Shown in pieces: positions 2,903 to 42,888 of a stretch of 42,888 nucleotides of DNA. This DNA comes from a virus (taxonomy: Duplodnaviria; Heunggongvirae; Uroviricota; Caudoviricetes). Every line of letters begins with the position of its first letter. Within the stretch, counting starts at the first letter, position 1. The position numbers and the translations under genes were made by a program. Under the pieces are notes generated by a model. The model was not told the DNA's origin, made no database searches, and saw nothing but the letters and a program-made list of their open reading frames with translations. Where the stretch lies: IMG/VR virus record IMGVR_UViG_2734482773_000006, one strand, 5' to 3'.

Positions 2903-3502
2903 TCAGAATTTATAACCGACACCCACGATGAAACCGTCAGTGCGCCAGTCACCACTGCCGGAGCCTTCATAAGCAATATCAATGGCCACGGATTCGGTCG
3001 GGTTAAACTGCACGCCAGCCCCCCACGCCAGAGACGTGTTGCTGTGGCGACCGTCATCACTTCCGGTCAGCACATCGTGCGTTTTCCCCTTGTTGTCAGT
3101 TACGCGAAGATAATCCCCGGAGAAAGTCGACACACGGCTGTAAGCTACACCCGCCATCGCATACGCGCTGAACCATTCATTCACGCGCACAGACGGCCCC
3201 GCCATTACGCTGAACCAGCGGTTACGAACGGAATCTTCATGCCAGCGGGTATCGCTGTAACGGGTCAGCTGGCGATTCTTGTCTCCTGCATAGCTGAATG
3301 ACGTCACCAGCCCCAGTGTGTCCGTAAACTCATAACGGTATTTCACGTTAATCCCGTTCAGATCATCACTGCCGGGGACGTTCGTCGAGGCATGAAGATA
3401 CCCCGCGCTCAGCGTGGACTGATGTTCAGACGCCCATGCAGGCGCACCGGATACGGCCAGACAAATGGCTGCGGACAAAATTGCTGCACAAACTTTACGC
3501 AT
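2903..3502 (-). CDS. lom: Outer membrane protein Lom (Ail/Lom family)
   Basis: 199-aa ORF with signal peptide, ends in aromatic residue (beta-barrel); position between J and stf as in lambda. Confidence 0.9.
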   Translation of the reverse strand: MRKVCAAILSAAICLAVSGAPAWASEHQSTLSAGYLHASTNVPGSDDLNGINVKYRYEFTDTLGLVTSFSYAGDKNRQLTRYSDTRWHEDSVRNRWFSVMAGPSVRVNEWFSAYAMAGVAYSRVSTFSGDYLRVTDNKGKTHDVLTGSDDGRHSNTSLAWGAGVQFNPTESVAIDIAYEGSGSGDWRTDGFIVGVGYKF

Positions 3503-3572
3503 AATTACCTCTCGCTTTTCTGCAATAAAAAAGGCGTCATTCCTGACGCCCTTTATTGGGGTTATAAATATT

Positions 3573-6500
3573 TCAACGAATACTGATGCCGGAAGCGGCT
3601 TTTTTGGTCACAATCACCGTACAGTCGGTGATATTGCCTGCCCCCTGATTGCCTTTCTGGAAAATCTTAAACTCCAGAGTGACGCTTCCCCTGCCACTCG
3701 GCATATCAATAACTGCACTGTAACTACCGGGAATGGCCCCTTTAGTTTCTCTGGATGCGATTAATACGCCGTTTTTGCGAACTTCAAAACCATAACCCGT
3801 GTATCGCGTGCCTCCTGGGTTATTTCCGCTCCCCGGATCGTCATACGCTATACCGTTAAAAATAATGGGCGGAATAATAATCTGGCGGTCAAAGTTATGA
3901 TCATCGCTGATGGTGACTGTAACCGTACCGTTTGGTGTTTCCGTGTTACCCCACGTACCGACTTTTTTCGGGAAGGCTTTTGATACAGCTTTAACGAAAT
4001 CTCCTCTGACCTGGGTCGCCTCCAGCATGCCCTTAATCGTACAGTTCTGGTTAATCGTGACATTGTTGAGCGTTCCTGAGTTCGCATTCACACTGCCACT
4101 GATATCCGCATTTTTCGCCGTCAGTCTCCCGTCTGATGTCAGGGAAAATGCCGGAGGATTACCGCCGCTGGTAATGGTGGGGGCCGTCAGGCGTTTCAGG
4201 AACACTTCATTCATGAATATCTGATCGCCCTGACCAACAAACATCGGCTTTGTGTTGCCATTCGCAGGATTAATCATCGCAATCCTGTCTGCTGCCAGCA
4301 GCACCTGACTCTGCATGCCGTCAGGGGTGTTCTCAATACCGGCACCGATACCCGCAATATAAAGGCGTCCGTCCTGCATCTGCTGCAGCTTCACTGCCCA
4401 CATGCTGTTCAGGTTATTATTTGTATCAACCTGAACCTTCTGTATCTGCTGGATCGCTGCACTCTGGTCTTCCAGTTTCTTATTGACGGTCTGTGTTATT
4501 TCATTGCTGACATCCGTTATGGACGTCCTGATTTCAGTCAGGTCAGGCGCAAGCTGACCGTTATCAATCTGCGTCCACAGCTCCTGAGCCAGATGGGTTT
4601 TCCCTATCTCGCCTTTGAAAAAATCCAGATAGCCTGATGCATCATCACTCGGCTGACCGACAGCCTCCACGAATGCCGATTTGCCAACGGTGTTCACACT
4701 GCGGATATAAAAGTAATAATCATGGCCCGGTTTGATATTGATACTGGCGGCTATCCAGTACAGCCCCGTGCCAAGGTAGCGGGCTGTGGTTTCAACCTGC
4801 CTGATATCGGTAATCCGCGTTTCCGAGAACCAGAACTCAAATTGTACCGTCGGATCATAAACCGCAAGATGCGGCGTGGCGGTTATCTGAAAATAGCCCG
4901 GTGTCAGCTCAATCCGAGACGGCGCTGCCGGTGCGGCAATCCGGAACGATACCGATGCCGGTTCGCCCTGCTGTCCCCACGCATTTACCGCCCGGACAGT
5001 CAGCCTGTAGTTCCCCAGCGCCAGTTGCGTGAAGCGGTATGTGGTTTCCGTCGTCCTGGCCGTACTGACCAGCCGCTCACTGCCATCGTCCGCTGCCACG
5101 GTCAGGCGAAGCAGGAAGCTCACCCCCTTCACCACCTTCGGCGTGTCCCAGCGCGCCAGCACCTGATATTCCCCGCTGTCTGCGGTGACTTCGGCAGTCA
5201 GGTGCTGCACCGCGGGCGGCGTGACGCCATTCACCGTGCCGCTCAGGTCGCCGTCAAAGTGCGCCCCGTTATCCACGATGGCTTCTTTTTCGGGTACATG
5301 CTGCACGGCGGTGATGGCATACGTGCCGTCGTCGTTCTCACGGATACTCACGCAGCGGAACAGGCGCTGGCGCAGCGTCGGCAGCTTCAGCCCCCACACG
5401 CTGTATCCGGCAACGCCGTCAGGAACACGGCTCACTTTTACCTTCACGCCGTCGGTGACGGACTGGACCTCCACGCTGACCGGATTGCCACTTCCGTCAA
5501 CCAGGCTTATCAGCGTGGTACCGGAGGATGGCAGCGTGATTTCACGGTCGAGCGTCAGCGTCCGGGTCTGGCTGTTCACCGCCAGCACGCGCCCGCCGAT
5601 GCTGATACCCGCATAGTCATCATCGCAGATTTCAATGACATCCCCCGGTACATGGCGAAGCCCTTCCGCACCCACGCTGAAGTCCACGGTCTGCGTTTCC
5701 AGCAGTTCCGTTTTAATCAGCCACAGCCCGGCGCGGTGCGCCTGCCCCCGGCTGGTACAGCCAAAGGCATCCATCTTCGTGACGTTACGACCGTAACGGG
5801 CAATGGCCTGAGTATCTTCAACAAGCTCTGTCGCCGTCTCCCAGCCGTTGTTCGGGTCAATCCAGTTCACCTCAACGGCATTATGGCGGTCCTTCAGGGC
5901 GCTGAAGCTGTAGCGGAACGGCGCGCCATCATCCGGCATCACCACATTACTGCGGTTATAGGTCCACGCCTTATCCGACGGTCGGTCCTGCACAAACGTC
6001 AGCGTCTGCCCGTTCCATACCGGCATACAGCGCATCGCCGAGCAGAAATCACTGAGCACATCCCACGCCTTACGCTGTGTGGTCAGGTACGCATTACAGG
6101 TGATGCGCGGCTCCGTGCCGCCAAAGCCGTCCGGCACTGACTGGTCGCAGTACTGGCCGATGACATACAGCGCCCATTTATCTACATCCGCTGCACCAAG
6201 ACGTTTCCCCATGCCGTAGCGCGGATGGGTCAGCATATCCCACATACACCAGGCCATGTTGTTGCTGTATGCTGGCTTAAACGTTCCGTCCCAGATACCG
6301 CTGTATTGCCGCGTCTGCGGGTTATAGTTCGACGGCACCTGCAGAATGCGCCCGCGCAGATGATAATTACGGCTCACCTGCTGGCTGCCGAACTGCTCCG
6401 AATCCACCTGCACGCCGACCAGTGCCGTGTTCGGGTAGCACTGTTTCACATCGATGATTTCGGTGTATGACGACCAGAGCGTTTTGTTCTGCAGCTGGTC

Positions 6501-7070
6501 TGTGGTGCTGTCCGGCGTCATCCTGCGCATCCGGATATTAAACGGGCGCGGCGGCAGGTTATCCACCACCACCGAGGCCAGATACTGCGAGGTGGTTTTG
6601 CCCTTAATGGTGATGTCTTTTTCCGTCACCCAGCCACCGTTACGCTGTATCTGAACCAGCAGGCGGACTTCCGACGGATTCCGGTCCCCCTTTGAGGTGG
6701 TTTCCACCAGTGCCTGCACACCGAAGGTAAAGCGCAGACGGTCGATGTTTGCAGACGTAATGGTGCGGGTGATCGGCGTGTCATATTTCACTTCCGTACC
6801 CAGCACCGTCTCGGAGCCGGAGGATTCAAACCCCTCCGGCGGTGTCTGCTCCTGCTCACCGGCACGGAACACCACCGTGACACCGGAGATGTTGGTATTC
6901 CCCTCAGTGTCCAGCACCGGCGTACTGTTCAGCAGCACGCTTTTTAATCCATCCACCGGACCTTCAACCGGCCCTTCGCTGATGGCATCGATCACACTCA
7001 GCAGCTGCGTGGACTTCAGGTTGTCCTTCGCTTCGCGCGGGGTATGCCCCTTACTGCTGCCTTTACCCAT
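3573..7070 (-). CDS. J: Tail tip host specificity protein J (central tail fibre)
   Basis: 1165-aa ORF; N-terminal and central sequence lambda J-like; C-terminal ~150 aa differ from lambda J as recalled. Confidence 0.95.
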
Positions 7071-25427: not shown

Positions 25428-26525
25428 ATGAAAAAATTAACAGTGGCAATTTCTGCTGTAGCTGCATCAGTACTGATGGCGATGTCTGCTCAGGCAGCTG
25501 AAATTTATAATAAAGACAGTAACAAGCTGGATCTGTACGGAAAAGTTAATGCCAAGCACTACTTTTCCTCTAACGATGCAGATGATGGTGATACTACTTA
25601 TGTTCGTCTGGGCTTCAAAGGCGAAACCCAAATCAACGATCAGCTGACTGGTTTCGGTCAGTGGGAATATGAATTCAAAGGCAACCGCGCTGAATCTCAA
25701 GGTTCCTCCAAAGACAAAACCCGTCTTGCATTTGCAGGCCTGAAATTCGGTGACTACGGCTCAATCGATTACGGCCGTAACTACGGTGTAGCATACGACA
25801 TCGGTGCGTGGACTGACGTTCTGCCAGAATTCGGTGGCGATACCTGGACCCAAACAGATGTGTTCATGACTGGTCGCACCACTGGTGTTGCAACCTATCG
25901 TAACAACGACTTCTTTGGTCTGGTTGATGGTCTGAACTTTGCTGCTCAGTACCAAGGCAAAAACGATCGTAGCGATTTCGATAACTACACCGAAGGTAAC
26001 GGTGATGGCTTCGGTTTCTCTGCTACCTATGAATACGAAGGGTTCGGTATCGGTGCAACTTATGCGAAATCTGATCGTACCGACACTCAAGTTAATGCAG
26101 GGAAAGTTCTTCCTGAAGTATTTGCTTCCGGTAAAAATGCAGAAGTTTGGGCCGCAGGTCTGAAATATGACGCTAACAACATTTACCTGGCCACTACCTA
26201 TTCTGAAACCCAGAATATGACTGTATTTGCTGATCACTTCGTTGCTAATAAAGCTCAAAACTTCGAAGCTGTTGCACAATATCAGTTCGATTTCGGTCTG
26301 CGTCCGTCCGTTGCTTACCTGCAATCTAAAGGTAAGGATCTTGGAGTATGGGGCGATCAGGACTTAGTCAAATATGTTGATGTAGGTGCAACCTATTACT
26401 TCAACAAAAATATGTCTACTTTCGTTGATTACAAAATCAACCTGCTTGACAAAAATGACTTCACTAAAGCACTCGGTGTAAGCACTGATGACATCGTTGC
26501 TGTAGGTCTGGTTTACCAGTTCTAA
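25428..26525 (+). CDS. nmpC: Outer membrane general porin, NmpC/Lc (OmpC/OmpF family), intact
   Basis: 365-aa ORF with signal peptide [23 protein letters not shown] and C-terminal VGLVYQF; matches DLP12 NmpC / phage PA-2 Lc as recalled; lies between Q and S on the opposite strand. Confidence 0.9.
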
Positions 26526-28813: not shown

Positions 28814-30709
28814 TTAATTATTTTTCTTTAACTTGAAATTTCTTCCCATTGCTAGTGTTCTTCGAAGATTCGAATCATAAGCTGGTTGATAATATCTATC
28901 ATAAAAATCCTTAATTGTCTGATGGTAAGTATCCAGCATCAAACCATAAAACCCCCTAACCTTAAGATAATCCACCAAGGGAAATAAATAATCATCAGTC
29001 TGAACATCAGTATCAATATTATTTTTTTGTTTTTTAACTTCAAATTTGTATAAGTTTAACTCACCCTTATCCATCGTGCATGAAAAAAGGTCGTCAAAAA
29101 TCAAATCAATTTCTGTCATAGGAACTCGTTCTTTTCCAGACATTATAGGTAGAATATCAATACCTAAGAGCGAACCTAATACAAAGTCGTAATGAAGCGA
29201 AATCACTGAGTCATTCGATGTCGAGTTGCCTTTGATAAATACTCTACTTAGTGCCGAGTCAAAAACATTCTCAACTCTCTCTCTCGTCATGTTTGCGACA
29301 TCTACAACTCCCATATCACGAGAAGCTTTTATTGTGATTTCATCTATAAATGCTTTGGAATCTAGTGAATGTAAAAACAACATGAAGTTATCTAACTGTT
29401 CAGAGCATTTAATAGCCACCATAAGATTTTCGTATATATCTTTTTTATACTCAATCGGTAAATTTGCTACCGCAAAAGCAGCATAAAATTCTTGCACTGA
29501 TTTATGCAGAAAAACATACCTATTATTTCCCTCAGGTTGGATAAGGCAAGTTATCTCAATAAGATCATCTATAAAGTTTGATGCATCTTCTTTAAGATAA
29601 CCTTCTGTTTCAATAGCATCTTCAGCATATCTAAGCAACTCCTCTCCCCAAAACTCAAATTTCTCCTCAATCAGTGCGTTATAGCAAATAGCTGAAAAAC
29701 ACAATTTAGCTTTTTCACCAATAATGTTTGATTTTTTCTCGCGCGTATATACTTTTATTTTATCATGCCTTGCATATAAGGTGTCAAAGAGGCTTCGATA
29801 AAACTCTATTATATTATTTGGAATATCATTCATATAAGGATAACAATAATACAAAAGAGTAACTAAAATTGGATTGCAAATAGTTCCCTCAAGTTCTTCT
29901 TTATCACATAGTAAATCCGCCAAGACTTTAAACGAGGCATCACTACTTGAGAATCTGTCATTTTTCGATAAAGAATGAAGAATACAAATCTTATCAGAAA
30001 TATTTAGCTTATCTATAAAAATATTATACACATCAGTAGTATAACATATATCTGTATTTGGTCTCGTTGTTGCGATAATTGGTGTGTTAAAATGATAATG
30101 AATGTTTTTTATTTCATTCATCATCATAGTTCGCTCTTCATGTTTAACCTCATCAAATCCATCCAACATTAAAACGACTCTTTGGGATTGCAGTAATATT
30201 TTCAAGCTATCCTCTGAACACCCCACACCAAATGAATTAAGAATGTCTGCCAGATAAGCAATAATATTTGCATTCTTCACCCTTCTTAATTCAATAAAAA
30301 AAGGCATCCGTTCTGATTTTTTTATTTCCTCGCTAAACAACTTGCGTAAAATAGTACTTTTCCCTTGCCCCGCTATACCGACTATATTTACAATACCATG
30401 AAATGGTAAAGTGACCCCATCTTTTATAACGACCTTGTCTTTATTAGATGCCACCTCAACAGTTAACGGATAATAAATATCATCTAAAAAAATATCATAA
30501 TCAGCGTTGTGCAAAGTTCTCATTTTCAGAGATGGTAGCACATGCTTTCTTAAATAATTTTCTCTTCCGAGGGGATCATTTAATTGTTCGAGTATAACCT
30601 TGCCTTCATCTAGGTCCCTAGCCCAAGGTTTAGAGAGCAATACTTCTGTTATTTTTTCCGCAGCTTTTCCTACTGTGCTATTAATAATAGTCGCAAGAAA
30701 CTCATCCAT
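28814..30709 (-). CDS. NACHT/STAND-family P-loop NTPase (bacterial NLR-like), candidate single-gene anti-phage defence protein
   Basis: ORF track 28814..30766 (650 aa); likely start at internal Met (30709) preceded by GGTGA; Walker A GIAGQGKST (ORF aa 130-138), Walker B VVLMLDGFDE (197-206), TTRP (233-236); visibly AT-rich gene with AT-rich non-coding flanks. Confidence 0.7.
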   Translation of the reverse strand: MDEFLATIINSTVGKAAEKITEVLLSKPWARDLDEGKVILEQLNDPLGRENYLRKHVLPSLKMRTLHNADYDIFLDDIYYPLTVEVASNKDKVVIKDGVTLPFHGIVNIVGIAGQGKSTILRKLFSEEIKKSERMPFFIELRRVKNANIIAYLADILNSFGVGCSEDSLKILLQSQRVVLMLDGFDEVKHEERTMMMNEIKNIHYHFNTPIIATTRPNTDICYTTDVYNIFIDKLNISDKICILHSLSKNDRFSSSDASFKVLADLLCDKEELEGTICNPILVTLLYYCYPYMNDIPNNIIEFYRSLFDTLYARHDKIKVYTREKKSNIIGEKAKLCFSAICYNALIEEKFEFWGEELLRYAEDAIETEGYLKEDASNFIDDLIEITCLIQPEGNNRYVFLHKSVQEFYAAFAVANLPIEYKKDIYENLMVAIKCSEQLDNFMLFLHSLDSKAFIDEITIKASRDMGVVDVANMTRERVENVFDSALSRVFIKGNSTSNDSVISLHYDFVLGSLLGIDILPIMSGKERVPMTEIDLIFDDLFSCTMDKGELNLYKFEVKKQKNNIDTDVQTDDYLFPLVDYLKVRGFYGLMLDTYHQTIKDFYDRYYQPAYDSNLRRTLAMGRNFKLKKNN

Positions 30710-31097
30710 TTTTTCACCACATTCATTAACCAATACGTGGTGCATTCTTACAAGACTCAGTAACAATTGTCAATCATAGGTTTTCGCATGATTGCAAAAC
30801 GCCATAAACAATTGTAGCACCATAATTTTAAACACTATATAATATACAACCTTCCTACAAGCATTCAGTACATCGCTTAATCACAGGGCTTGAATATATA
30901 GTAAGGAATCGATATTAATCACCTCATCTACTTTAAACATCTTACACACCTATAATTTATAATAGTCAACACGAGGTCATCATATTAAACATGCAATTAC
31001 AAACATTCATTTTTATATAAATTTTCATGATTTAACCGTAGGGCGACGGTAATAAATTTCATATACAAGGATTTAAGCTCCCATACGTTTTCTATTA

Positions 31098-39151: not shown

Positions 39152-39754
39152 TCATTCAGTATCATCACGCGCGGTCTGTGCATATGTCACTACCGCACCT
39201 AATATATTAATTTTCTTTTCAACATAGATAATATTATCGTACTCATAATTGCCATACGGATAGCAAATGCGAATATTCTCATGTAGATCGGGGTCATCCA
39301 CCTCAGCTCCAGAACAACTTTTTGAACTACCGGAAGTATACCGATACGGTGCAACATAAGACGATGTCTCTCCAGGCAAAAAATAAGTTAGTGTCGTAAG
39401 GGGTATAATCAGAAAAAATCCTGCAAATATGCACATCCCTGCATAAACCTTAAGGTATGCTGACAGACTCTTCCAGCCTCTTTGTTTTACTATCCCCTTC
39501 TTAACCCAAAACAGAGATAACAGAAAAGCTATTCCCATGCTAAACAGAATGTAATAGTGGGATATACTCTGATTAAGAAACGTGACCCTGTAGATATCTG
39601 CCCGCCACCAGAAGAAAAGGAAAATAAAGATCAGCCCTGAAACTGTCATGCAAATCAAATAAGGATACGAATCTTTTTTCATGTTTAGCGCCCATAAAAT
39701 TTTTCCTGACCCGGACAAATTTACCATCCATTTTTTGCGCAGAAAATAGCTCAT
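39152..39754 (-). CDS. Hypothetical integral membrane protein (three predicted TM helices plus Cys-containing C-terminal domain), AT-rich moron
   Basis: 200-aa ORF on the opposite strand to neighbours; hydrophobic segments LICMTVSGLIFIFLFFWW, YYILFSMGIAFLLSLFWV, VYAGMCIFAGFFLIIPLTTLTYFL; start codon uncertain. Confidence 0.5.
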   Translation of the reverse strand: MSYFLRKKWMVNLSGSGKILWALNMKKDSYPYLICMTVSGLIFIFLFFWWRADIYRVTFLNQSISHYYILFSMGIAFLLSLFWVKKGIVKQRGWKSLSAYLKVYAGMCIFAGFFLIIPLTTLTYFLPGETSSYVAPYRYTSGSSKSCSGAEVDDPDLHENIRICYPYGNYEYDNIIYVEKKINILGAVVTYAQTARDDTE

Positions 39755-39996
39755 TACTTACTGCACAATAATACACAAAATTGCGTAAATTTTTTGCATG
39801 GATTTTAGCTCTTTCAGCCGACATTTAAGGGGTAAATAGCATTTCCTAAAAGCAACTGCACCAACCCAACAGAATGGGCTACCGCTTACGTTGAGAGCAA
39901 AAAAGTGTATAGCAGCAATGAACAGCATCCTCGCACTGACGAGGATTTCTTTTATCTGAACTCGCTACGGCGGGTTTTGTTTTATGGAGATGATAA

Positions 39997-40164
39997 ATGC
40001 ACTTCCGAGTCACAGGTGAATGGAATGGAGAACCATTCAACAGAGTTATCGAAGCCGAGAACATCAGCGACTGCTATGACCACTGGATGCTGTGGGCGCA
40101 GATAGCACATGCAGACGTAACCAATATTCGAATTGAAGAACTGAAAGAACACCAAGCCGCCTGA
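39997..40164 (+). CDS. Small hypothetical protein upstream of xis (lambda orf55-like position)
   Basis: Read by eye, ~55 codons, ATG preceded by GGAGA; below the ORF track threshold. Confidence 0.4.
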   Translation: MHFRVTGEWNGEPFNRVIEAENISDCYDHWMLWAQIAHADVTNIRIEELKEHQAA

Positions 40165-40178
40165 TGGCGGTTTTTTCT
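40156..40178 (+). terminator. Rho-independent terminator-like hairpin between the small ORF and xis
   Basis: GCCGCCTGATGGCGG followed by TTTTTT, read by eye. Confidence 0.45.
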
Positions 40179-40203
40179 TGCGTGTAATTGCGGAGACTTT
40201 GCG

Positions 40204-40422
40204 ATGTACTTGACACTTCAGGAGTGGAACGCACGCCAGCGACGCCCAAGAAGCCTTGAAACAGTTCGTCGATGGGTACGCGAGTGCAGGATATTCCCTC
40301 CTCCGGTTAAGGATGGAAGAGAGTATCTGTTCCACGAATCAGCGGTAAAGGTTGACTTAAATCGACCAGTAACAGGTAGCCTTTTGAAGAGGATCAGAAA
40401 TGGGAAGAAGGCGAAGTCATGA
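40204..40422 (+). CDS. xis: Excisionase Xis
   Basis: 72 aa, MYLTLQEWNARQRRPRSLETVRRWVRECRIFPPPVKDGREYLFHESAV, lambda Xis. Confidence 0.95.
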   Translation: MYLTLQEWNARQRRPRSLETVRRWVRECRIFPPPVKDGREYLFHESAVKVDLNRPVTGSLLKRIRNGKKAKS

Positions 40423-41470
40423 GCGCCGGGATTTACCCCCTAACCTTTATATAAGAAACAATGGATATTACTGCTACAGGGACCCAAGGACGGGTAAAGA
40501 GTTTGGATTAGGCAGAGACAGGCGAATCGCAATCACTGAAGCCATACAGGCCAACATTGAGTTATTTTCAGGACACAAACACAAGCCTCTGACAGCGAGA
40601 ATCAACAGTGATAATTCCGTTACGTTACATTCATGGCTTGATCGCTACGAAAAAATCCTGGCCAGCAGAGGAATCAAGCAGAAGACACTCATAAATTACA
40701 TGAGCAAAATTAAAGCAATAAGGAGGGGTCTGCCTGATGCTCCACTTGAAGACATCACCACAAAAGAAATTGCGGCAATGCTCAATGGATACATAGACGA
40801 GGGCAAGGCGGCGTCAGCCAAGTTAATCAGATCAACACTGAGCGATGCATTCCGAGAGGCAATAGCTGAAGGCCATATAACAACAAACCCTGTCGCTGCC
40901 ACTCGCGCAGCAAAATCAGAGGTAAGGAGATCAAGACTTACGGCTGACGAATACCTGAAAATTTATCAAGCAGCAGAATCATCACCATGTTGGCTCAGAC
41001 TTGCAATGGAACTGGCTGTTGTTACCGGGCAACGAGTTGGTGATTTATGCGAAATGAAGTGGTCTGATATCGTAGATGGATATCTTTATGTCGAGCAAAG
41101 CAAAACAGGCGTAAAAATTGCCATCCCAACAGCATTGCATGTTGATGCTCTCGGAATATCAATGAAGGAAACACTTGATAAATGCAAAGAGATTCTTGGC
41201 GGAGAAACCATAATTGCATCTACTCGTCGCGAACCGCTTTCATCCGGCACAGTATCAAGGTATTTTATGCGCGCACGAAAAGCATCAGGTCTTTCCTTCG
41301 AAGGGGATCCGCCTACCTTTCACGAGTTGCGCAGTTTGTCTGCAAGACTCTATGAGAAGCAGATAAGCGATAAGTTTGCTCAACATCTTCTCGGGCATAA
41401 GTCGGACACCATGGCATCACAGTATCGTGATGACAGAGGCAGGGAGTGGGACAAAATTGAAATCAAATAA
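40400..41470 (+). CDS. int: Integrase Int (tyrosine recombinase)
   Basis: 356 aa, MGRRRSHERRDLPPNLYIRNNGYYCYRDPRTGKEFGLGRDRRIAI, lambda Int; overlaps xis. Confidence 0.95.
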   Translation: MGRRRSHERRDLPPNLYIRNNGYYCYRDPRTGKEFGLGRDRRIAITEAIQANIELFSGHKHKPLTARINSDNSVTLHSWLDRYEKILASRGIKQKTLINYMSKIKAIRRGLPDAPLEDITTKEIAAMLNGYIDEGKAASAKLIRSTLSDAFREAIAEGHITTNPVAATRAAKSEVRRSRLTADEYLKIYQAAESSPCWLRLAMELAVVTGQRVGDLCEMKWSDIVDGYLYVEQSKTGVKIAIPTALHVDALGISMKETLDKCKEILGGETIIASTRREPLSSGTVSRYFMRARKASGLSFEGDPPTFHELRSLSARLYEKQISDKFAQHLLGHKSDTMASQYRDDRGREWDKIEIK

Positions 41471-41604: not shown

Positions 41605-42888
41605 GTGAACACATTTTCAGTTTCCCGTCTGGCGCTGGCATTGGCTTTTGGCGTGACGCTGACCGCCTGTAGCTCAACCCCGCCCGATCAACGTCCTTCT
41701 GATCAAACCGCGCCTGGTACCTCTTCTCGCCCGATTCTGTCGGCAAAAGAAGCGCAGAATTTCGATGCTCAACACTATTTTGCATCCCTGACACCAGGTG
41801 CTGCAGCGTGGAATCCTTCCCCGATTACCCTGCCTGCGCAACCTGACTTTGTTGTCGGCCCGGCGGGCACTCAAGGTGTAACGCATACCACGATTCAGGC
41901 GGCGGTAGATGCGGCAATTATCAAGCGTACCAACAAGCGCCAGTATATTGCCGTGATGCCTGGTGAGTATCAGGGAACGGTATATGTCCCTGCCGCTCCG
42001 GGTGGAATTACTCTGTACGGTACAGGTGAAAAACCGATTGATGTGAAGATTGGGCTTTCCCTTGATGGTGGCATGAGCCCTGCCGACTGGCGTCACGACG
42101 TCAACCCGCGCGGCAAATATATGCCAGGTAAACCAGCGTGGTATATGTACGATAGCTGCCAGAGCAAACGCAGCGACAGTATCGGTGTTCTCTGCTCTGC
42201 GGTCTTCTGGTCACAAAACAATGGCCTGCAACTGCAAAATCTGACCATCGAAAACACGCTGGGCGATAGCGTAGATGCAGGTAACCATCCGGCGGTGGCA
42301 CTGCGTACTGATGGTGACCAGGTACAGATTAACAACGTTAACATTCTCGGTCGTCAGAACACCTTCTTTGTCACCAACAGCGGTGTGCAGAACCGTCTGG
42401 AAACCAACCGTCAGCCGCGTACGCTGGTGACCAACAGCTACATTGAAGGGGATGTGGATATCGTTTCTGGTCGCGGCGCAGTGGTGTTCGATAACACCGA
42501 ATTCCGCGTGGTGAACTCACGTACTCAGCAAGAAGCGTATGTGTTTGCACCGGCTACGCTGTCCAACATTTACTACGGTTTCCTCGCCGTAAACAGCCGT
42601 TTCAATGCTTTCGGTGATGGTGTGGCGCAACTGGGCCGCTCGCTGGATGTTGATGCCAATACCAACGGTCAGGTGGTGATCCGTGATAGCGCCATCAACG
42701 AAGGTTTTAACACGGCGAAACCGTGGGCCGATGCGGTGATCTCTAATCGTCCGTTTGCGGGTAATACCGGCAGCGTAGATGATAACGACGAAATACAGCG
42801 CAATCTGAATGACACTAACTACAACCGCATGTGGGAATACAATAACCGCGGCGTGGGTAGTAAAGTGGTTGCAGAGGCGAAGAAGTAA
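41605..42888 (+). CDS. ybhC: Host YbhC-like outer membrane lipoprotein (pectinesterase-fold acyl-CoA thioesterase); chromosomal gene flanking lambda attB
   Basis: 427-aa ORF with lipoprotein signal LTAC; visibly different composition from the prophage; known neighbour of attB-lambda in E. coli. Confidence 0.85.
   Translation: MNTFSVSRLALALAFGVTLTACSSTPPDQRPSDQTAPGTSSRPILSAKEAQNFDAQHYFASLTPGAAAWNPSPITLPAQPDFVVGPAGTQGVTHTTIQAAVDAAIIKRTNKRQYIAVMPGEYQGTVYVPAAPGGITLYGTGEKPIDVKIGLSLDGGMSPADWRHDVNPRGKYMPGKPAWYMYDSCQSKRSDSIGVLCSAVFWSQNNGLQLQNLTIENTLGDSVDAGNHPAVALRTDGDQVQINNVNILGRQNTFFVTNSGVQNRLETNRQPRTLVTNSYIEGDVDIVSGRGAVVFDNTEFRVVNSRTQQEAYVFAPATLSNIYYGFLAVNSRFNAFGDGVAQLGRSLDVDANTNGQVVIRDSAINEGFNTAKPWADAVISNRPFAGNTGSVDDNDEIQRNLNDTNYNRMWEYNNRGVGSKVVAEAKK

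Follow-up and report, generated by a model that had tools for sequence, protein, structure and literature searches.

The C-terminus of gpJ sets the receptor specificity of the phage that carries it (PMC11101478; PMC3509688), so that a J protein whose end departs from that of lambda raises the question of which outer-membrane protein the corresponding particle would adsorb to. The J gene considered here lies in a window—that is, the whole stretch of DNA that was analysed—of 42,888 nucleotides. A preliminary description of that stretch had characterised J as being lambda-like over most of its length, but some 33 residues longer than lambda J and divergent over its C-terminal end, and had predicted from those features a receptor other than that of lambda. 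We therefore compared this J, module by module, with the J proteins of known phages, and we summarise the positions of the features concerned in Table 1.

The window contains what is apparently a complete lambda-like prophage, with head, tail, lysis, Q, replication, CI-type repressor, and lambda-type integrase genes, and with its right end abutting ybhC. J is the last gene of the tail-tip cluster (H-M-L-K-I-J) and is followed by lom. ORFs of 859, 109, 232, 247, and 223 aa precede it, and the block as a whole is 97–98% identical to phages annotated with H, J, and a side tail fibre.

Table 1. Positions of the features discussed, numbered from the first nucleotide of the window, with the basis for each assignment.
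Feature	Position	Strand	Basis
Side tail fibre gene, at least 947 aa, leaving the window at its left end	1–2844	minus	Pfam phage_tail_N at the N-terminus
lom (Ail/Lom outer-membrane protein), directly 3′ of J	2903..3502	minus	Pfam Ail_Lom, E = 1.5e-122
Terminator-like site between J and lom, a GC-rich hairpin followed by TTTTTTATT	3533..3550	minus	Reading of the sequence and pattern scan, same palindrome
Complete J gene (tip attachment/central tail fibre protein), 1165 aa plus stop	3573..7070	minus	ORF list, translation
J module 3, aa 1001–1165 plus stop, receptor-binding block of the phage 434 (h434) type	3573..4070	minus	Identity to 434 J
Ig-like C-terminal receptor-binding domain proper, aa 1029–1164	3579..3986	minus	Pfam PF12421 Ig_GpJ_C, E = 4e-25, 88.9 bits (cut-off 26.2)
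Conserved stretch of J, aa 951–1000, lower central straight fibre	4071..4220	minus	Common to this J, lambda, and 434
J module 2, aa 806–950, helical shaft and top of the beta-prism fibre, third allele	4221..4655	minus	~42% identity to lambda and 434
J module 1, aa 1–805, hub domains and two FNIII/Ig domains, lambda/434-type	4656..7070	minus	97.6% identity to lambda, 98.4% to 434
General porin, OmpC subfamily	25428–26525	plus	NCBIfam NF007841, 527.8 bits (cut-off 484); Pfam Porin_1, E = 2e-156
650-aa protein with NACHT/STAND NTPase domain	28817–30766	minus	Pfam PF05729, E = 3e-11, aa 126–237
Lambda-type integrase with arm-binding domain	40400–41470	plus	
Host gene ybhC	41605–42888	plus	NCBIfam PRK10531, E = 3e-220

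Modular structure of J

The reading frame of J is intact, with neither a frameshift nor an internal stop, and its product scored 2337.1 bits against the NCBIfam model lambda_TipJ (NF049904; cut-off 1950), residues 1–1165 aligning with model positions 1–1163; since that model itself comprises 1163 positions, the "long" form of J is the usual one. The Pfam matches along the protein are, in sequence, FNIII-A_GpJ (aa 86–207), Phage-tail_3 (330–496), Ig_J (610–714), Ig_J_second (716–818), Phage_Tail_Tip (872–1000), and Ig_GpJ_C (1029–1164), which series reproduces the order expected of a lambda-type J: the hub, two FNIII/Ig domains, the tail-tip fibre, and the C-terminal Ig-like receptor-binding domain. 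Three other ORFs overlap the end of the gene (3465–3764 and 3910–4224, both on the plus strand, and 3848–4087, on the minus strand in another frame), which ORFs we took as incidental because the minus-strand J frame is conserved end to end.

The protein belongs to the same family as lambda J (NP_040600; PDB 8iyk, 8xcj, 8xck), with the same domain order and a hub that is 97.6% identical over aa 1–805, where the DNA identity to lambda is 86–100% per 100 nt. The preliminary description of J as mostly lambda-like was accordingly borne out, as was its estimate of the length, the measured 1165 aa exceeding the 1132 aa of lambda J by exactly 33. The identity over the whole length, for its part, is 82% and is very unevenly distributed along the protein. 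Of the 33 extra residues, 28 are located in aa 806–950, while the C-terminal domain adds a net of 5 (+2 +6 +1 +2 −6).

The block at aa 806–950 constitutes a second divergent portion of J, lying outside the coordinates that the preliminary description had covered and missed there. This shaft is identical (100%) to that of phage Kati, and 65 phage records carry it with an identity of 95% or more. Two insertions, one of 21 aa (836–856) and the other of 7 aa (860–866), make this shaft 28 aa longer than that of either lambda or 434. Residues 841–861 of lambda J have been named as part of the alpha-helical shaft (PMC11101478), and a single-sequence AlphaFold model of the present shaft contains helices at aa 811–836 and 842–899, with pLDDT values of 78–88 over aa 846–885. 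From that model we would place, with moderate confidence, most of the inserted residues in helix; and were the 28 extra residues fully helical, they would lengthen the shaft by roughly 4 nm. Counted crudely in heptads, the shaft showed no clear register. Between the shaft and the tip, residues 951–1000, which fall inside the Phage_Tail_Tip match, are identical at 47 of 50 positions to lambda and at 46 of 50 to 434, with a DNA identity of 83–90%.

Judged from these alignments, J is a recombinant mosaic of at least three exchangeable modules: a hub of the lambda/434 type, a longer shaft of a third type, and a tip of the 434 type. The comparison with three other J proteins indicates that these modules reassort among phages. 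The J of Stx2a_WGPS6 is only 76% identical to the present one in the hub (aa 1–805), yet 100% in the shaft (aa 806–950) and 99.4% in the tip (aa 1001–1165); that of PhiR63_2 is 97.5% identical in the hub and 97% in the shaft, with a tip that is different and shorter; and that of 434 is 98.4% identical in the hub and 97.0% in the tip, with a lambda-type shaft of ~42% identity in between. The GC contents of 0.593 in the hub, 0.503 in the shaft, and 0.478 in the tip are consistent with separate histories of the modules. The gene is thus a clean example of module exchange within one coding sequence, both the principle and the allele having long been established.

The same three-module J of 1165 aa occurs in Kati (PP925833), PhiR34_1, mEp332, vB_EcoS-569R4, and phiSTEC1575-Stx2k, in which group the J and lom DNA is 96.9–97.6% identical to that of the window, the present J differing from theirs by scattered substitutions in the N-terminal 800 residues. 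For J as a whole, 3172 records of the E. coli genomes contain a copy with 95% identity or more, a figure that falls to 30 at 99% or more. We consider it very improbable that the prophage is cryptic and its J a non-functional remnant, uninformative on current adsorption: although J-like genes are found at a median of 3 places per E. coli genome, many of them in defective prophages, and although the side tail fibre gene leaves the window and thereby hides the left end of the prophage, the J ORF is of full length; the integrase, repressor, replication, Q, lysis, head, and tail genes are present in lambda order within the window; and ~20.6 kb of structural genes are 97–98% identical to phage records, such as those of Kati and PhiR34_1.

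The tip and its predicted receptor

At nt 3000 of J (window 4070) the DNA identity to lambda drops from 89% to 40–59% and remains low through the stop codon; across 3573–4070 the identity to 434 is 95–99%. In direct alignment the tip (aa 1001–1165) is identical to 434 J at 160 of 165 positions (97.0%) with zero gaps, and likewise at 160 of 165 (97.0%) to the J of the lambda h434 host-range hybrid. The high identity to lambda J residues 973–1132 to be expected of the LamB-binding allele of lambda was not found, the value being 38.8%, with indels at five places (aa 1040–1041, 1074–1079, 1115, and 1137–1138, and following 1147). The preliminary description, which had located the divergence from lambda J in the last ~150 residues (3573–4100) and had proposed an alignment of the J C-terminus as a check, was therefore well founded, in that its coordinates fit, the divergent block extends over ~165 residues, and the alignment that we ran gave low identity to lambda and high identity to 434. 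The contrast along J in the divergence from lambda is far beyond chance.

The J proteins of HK97, N15, and phi80 are homologous in the N-terminal hub, at 34–35% identity, and are without significant similarity in the C-terminal 165 aa, no BLASTP match being better than E = 5. In phi80 and N15, which are of the FhuA type, cor and other genes follow J, instead of the lom found in this prophage, so that neither the C-terminus nor the downstream gene corresponds to that of an FhuA-dependent lambdoid J accompanied by cor.

When the last 175 aa were searched against the translations of 50,697 phage records, the matches were bimodal, with 74 records at 90% identity or more and 172 below 60%. The former group includes phage 434 and lambda h434 imm21 (96.6%), mEp460, cdtI, and many Stx-converting phages, and in Kati, mEp332, and vB_EcoS-569R4 those 175 residues are 100% identical to the ones here. 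In an alignment of the J proteins of lambda h434 imm21 and lambda, 114 columns differ, of which 8 fall between residues 752 and 951 and the remaining 106 from lambda residue 973 onward; the tip block is thus the one that separates the 434 host range from that of lambda. At the level of DNA, 2113 of the 5426 complete E. coli genomes contained a match to the 498-nt tip block at 80% identity or more, and 563 records one at 99% or more. On the strength of these alignments, we would identify the divergent end of J as an already known allele, that of the phage 434 (h434) type, which is common and ordinary.

The likeness to 434 J and lambda h434 (OL657226, OM418627) extends beyond the sequence of the tip to its length, which is the same, to the hub, and to the placement of lom and the terminator, a terminator being annotated at the corresponding position in 434. 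The J–lom neighbourhood as a whole matches those of 434, Kati, and lambda. In contrast, the 434 J has only 1137 aa, with a shaft 28 residues shorter and of another allele, and its tip differs by five substitutions, the residues here (with those of 434 in parentheses) being N1047 (D), R1127 (G), I1136 (V), Q1138 (H), and G1143 (R). The last of these positions is polymorphic, being R in 434 and W in the h434 hybrid.

With respect to structure, the alignment of the last 275 aa with the solved gpJ fragments 9wca (E = 3e-91) and 8xcj (lambda gpJ713, E = 5e-83) runs from one end to the other, and because of these matches we regard the fold of the tip as settled; a single-sequence AlphaFold2 model of aa 981–1165, with a mean pLDDT of 46.9, was too poor for use. 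The best-scoring of the solved structures, over 274 residues, is that of A8 gpJ (PDB 9wca/9wcb), a chimeric protein that recognises OmpC. Over the last ~150 residues, however, the A8 protein represents a distinct allele, separated from the present one by many substitutions and gaps, and resembles instead the tip fragment of PhiR63_2. The C-terminal domain of lambda J is also homologous, but the lambda protein has another shaft and binds LamB, whereas OmpC is the receptor predicted here.

That prediction derives from the literature on 434. Phage 434 uses OmpC, and lambda carrying the 434 J binds OmpC and not LamB (PMC11101478; PMC3509688), for which statements both sources cite Hantke 1978 and related work. 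The 434 central fibre was likewise treated as OmpC-targeting in a 2025 study, according to which the tips of lambda, 434, and phi330 are 35–40% identical to one another (PMC12502783), and the identity of the present tip to that of lambda fits within that range. Furthermore, exchange of the gpJ C-terminus for natural variants has redirected engineered lambda particles to OmpC (bioRxiv 10.1101/2022.09.30.509847), A8 being one of the chimeras so used. Given that the tip is the 434/h434 allele, OmpC becomes the best-predicted receptor, and we expect, with a high degree of confidence, that the phage adsorbs irreversibly to that porin through the 434-type tip and not to LamB. The suggestion made in the preliminary description of a receptor other than lambda's is accordingly supported by the type of the tip and may be sharpened to a predicted OmpC specificity.

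The existence of viable deposited phages with an identical tip—namely Kati, mEp332, and vB_EcoS-569R4—counts in favour of an OmpC-directed tip. Of these, mEp332 has been kept as a prophage in E. coli K-12 MG1655 (PMC3442831), which strain is also the host listed in its record. In the literature searched we found no published receptor assignment either for the phages with the identical tip (mEp332, Kati) or for the PhiR phages.

A different outcome would be that the tip, though of the 434 fold, had its specificity shifted or broadened by the five substitutions, and perhaps by the longer shaft, toward OmpF or toward variants of OmpC that exclude the one of K-12. Small changes in J can indeed have such effects: the J proteins of lambda and phi21 can gain receptors through a single substitution or a few, one J mutation giving phi21 the use of OmpC and a few more that of OmpF (PMC11336670), while the gpJ chimeras A8 and 1A2 tell OmpC variants apart, recognising only certain ones (bioRxiv 10.1101/2022.09.30.509847); and the present tip does accumulate five differences from 434 in 165 residues, one of them at the polymorphic position 1143. 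Nevertheless, we judge such a shift to be improbable in view of the 97% identity to 434 without indels, the propagation of phages having the 100% identical tip on laboratory hosts, E. coli K-12 among them, and the very wide distribution of the allele, which abundance suggests a conserved working specificity. An OmpC specificity of the 434 type thus continues to be the reading that we prefer. Within that specificity there is a slight chance that the combination of the longer shaft and the five-substitution tip might alter which OmpC variants are recognised, or how the signal is transmitted up the fibre, in which circumstance a widespread natural allele would be functionally distinct from that of the laboratory 434.

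By homology with the structures of lambda gpJ and LamB (PMC11101478), we infer a triggering pathway in which the tip would consist of three Ig-like domains assembled as a trimer, with the distal loops reaching into the mouth of the trimeric porin from the extracellular side. This binding would then spread the Ig-like domains, twist the beta-prism fibre, and flip the helical shaft, upon which the FNIII strings would be released and the tail tip and tube would open for the ejection of the DNA.

For annotation purposes, the label "434-type, predicted OmpC-specific" would replace a plain "lambda J", which change carries little weight beyond the annotation itself. The 434-type label is nevertheless of use where host range, superinfection, or routes of transduction are to be predicted for lambdoid prophages, the Stx-converting ones included.

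Other genes of the prophage

In the side tail fibre gene, the GC content is high (0.62–0.63) and the AT skew strong at positions 1500–2500. The closest phages match the window only from positions 1367–1379 onward (from 2570 in phiSTEC1575-Stx2k), so that the distal part of the side tail fibre differs from those of all of them. At the right end, the integrase is followed by ybhC, so that, relative to the lambda attachment site, the prophage lies on the ybhC side. Two ORFs adjoin the integrase, at 39155–39754 (minus strand, 200 aa) and 39985–40335 (minus strand, 117 aa), on the strand opposite to that of the neighbouring early-left genes. The former matched PHROG 1416, of "unknown function", in its C-terminal 88 aa only, and the latter gave no match.

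The porin gene is situated between Q and the lysis genes and on the strand opposite to theirs, like the nmpC of DLP12. The Lc porin of phage PA-2 lowers OmpC and blocks OmpC-dependent phages. A phage that both used OmpC and encoded a porin to replace it could thus keep out other phages like itself. We found no literature on PA-2 or Lc linking a prophage porin to an OmpC-based exclusion, and the association of the porin with the 434-type tip is not strict, phage 4A7, with a non-434 tip, carrying the porin as well.

The NACHT gene, in turn, is located between the replication genes and ninB, a slot that is occupied by ren in lambda and by "PD-lambda-1" or an alpha/beta hydrolase in related phages. 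Its product had no match in PADLOC or in NCBIfam, and its relatives among the 50,697 phage records are only 24–25% identical. We regard the gene as a candidate prophage-borne NLR-like anti-phage defence gene, and it is arguably of greater interest than the J finding. Only 9 of the 5426 complete E. coli genomes contained it at full length, under the annotation "NACHT domain-containing protein".
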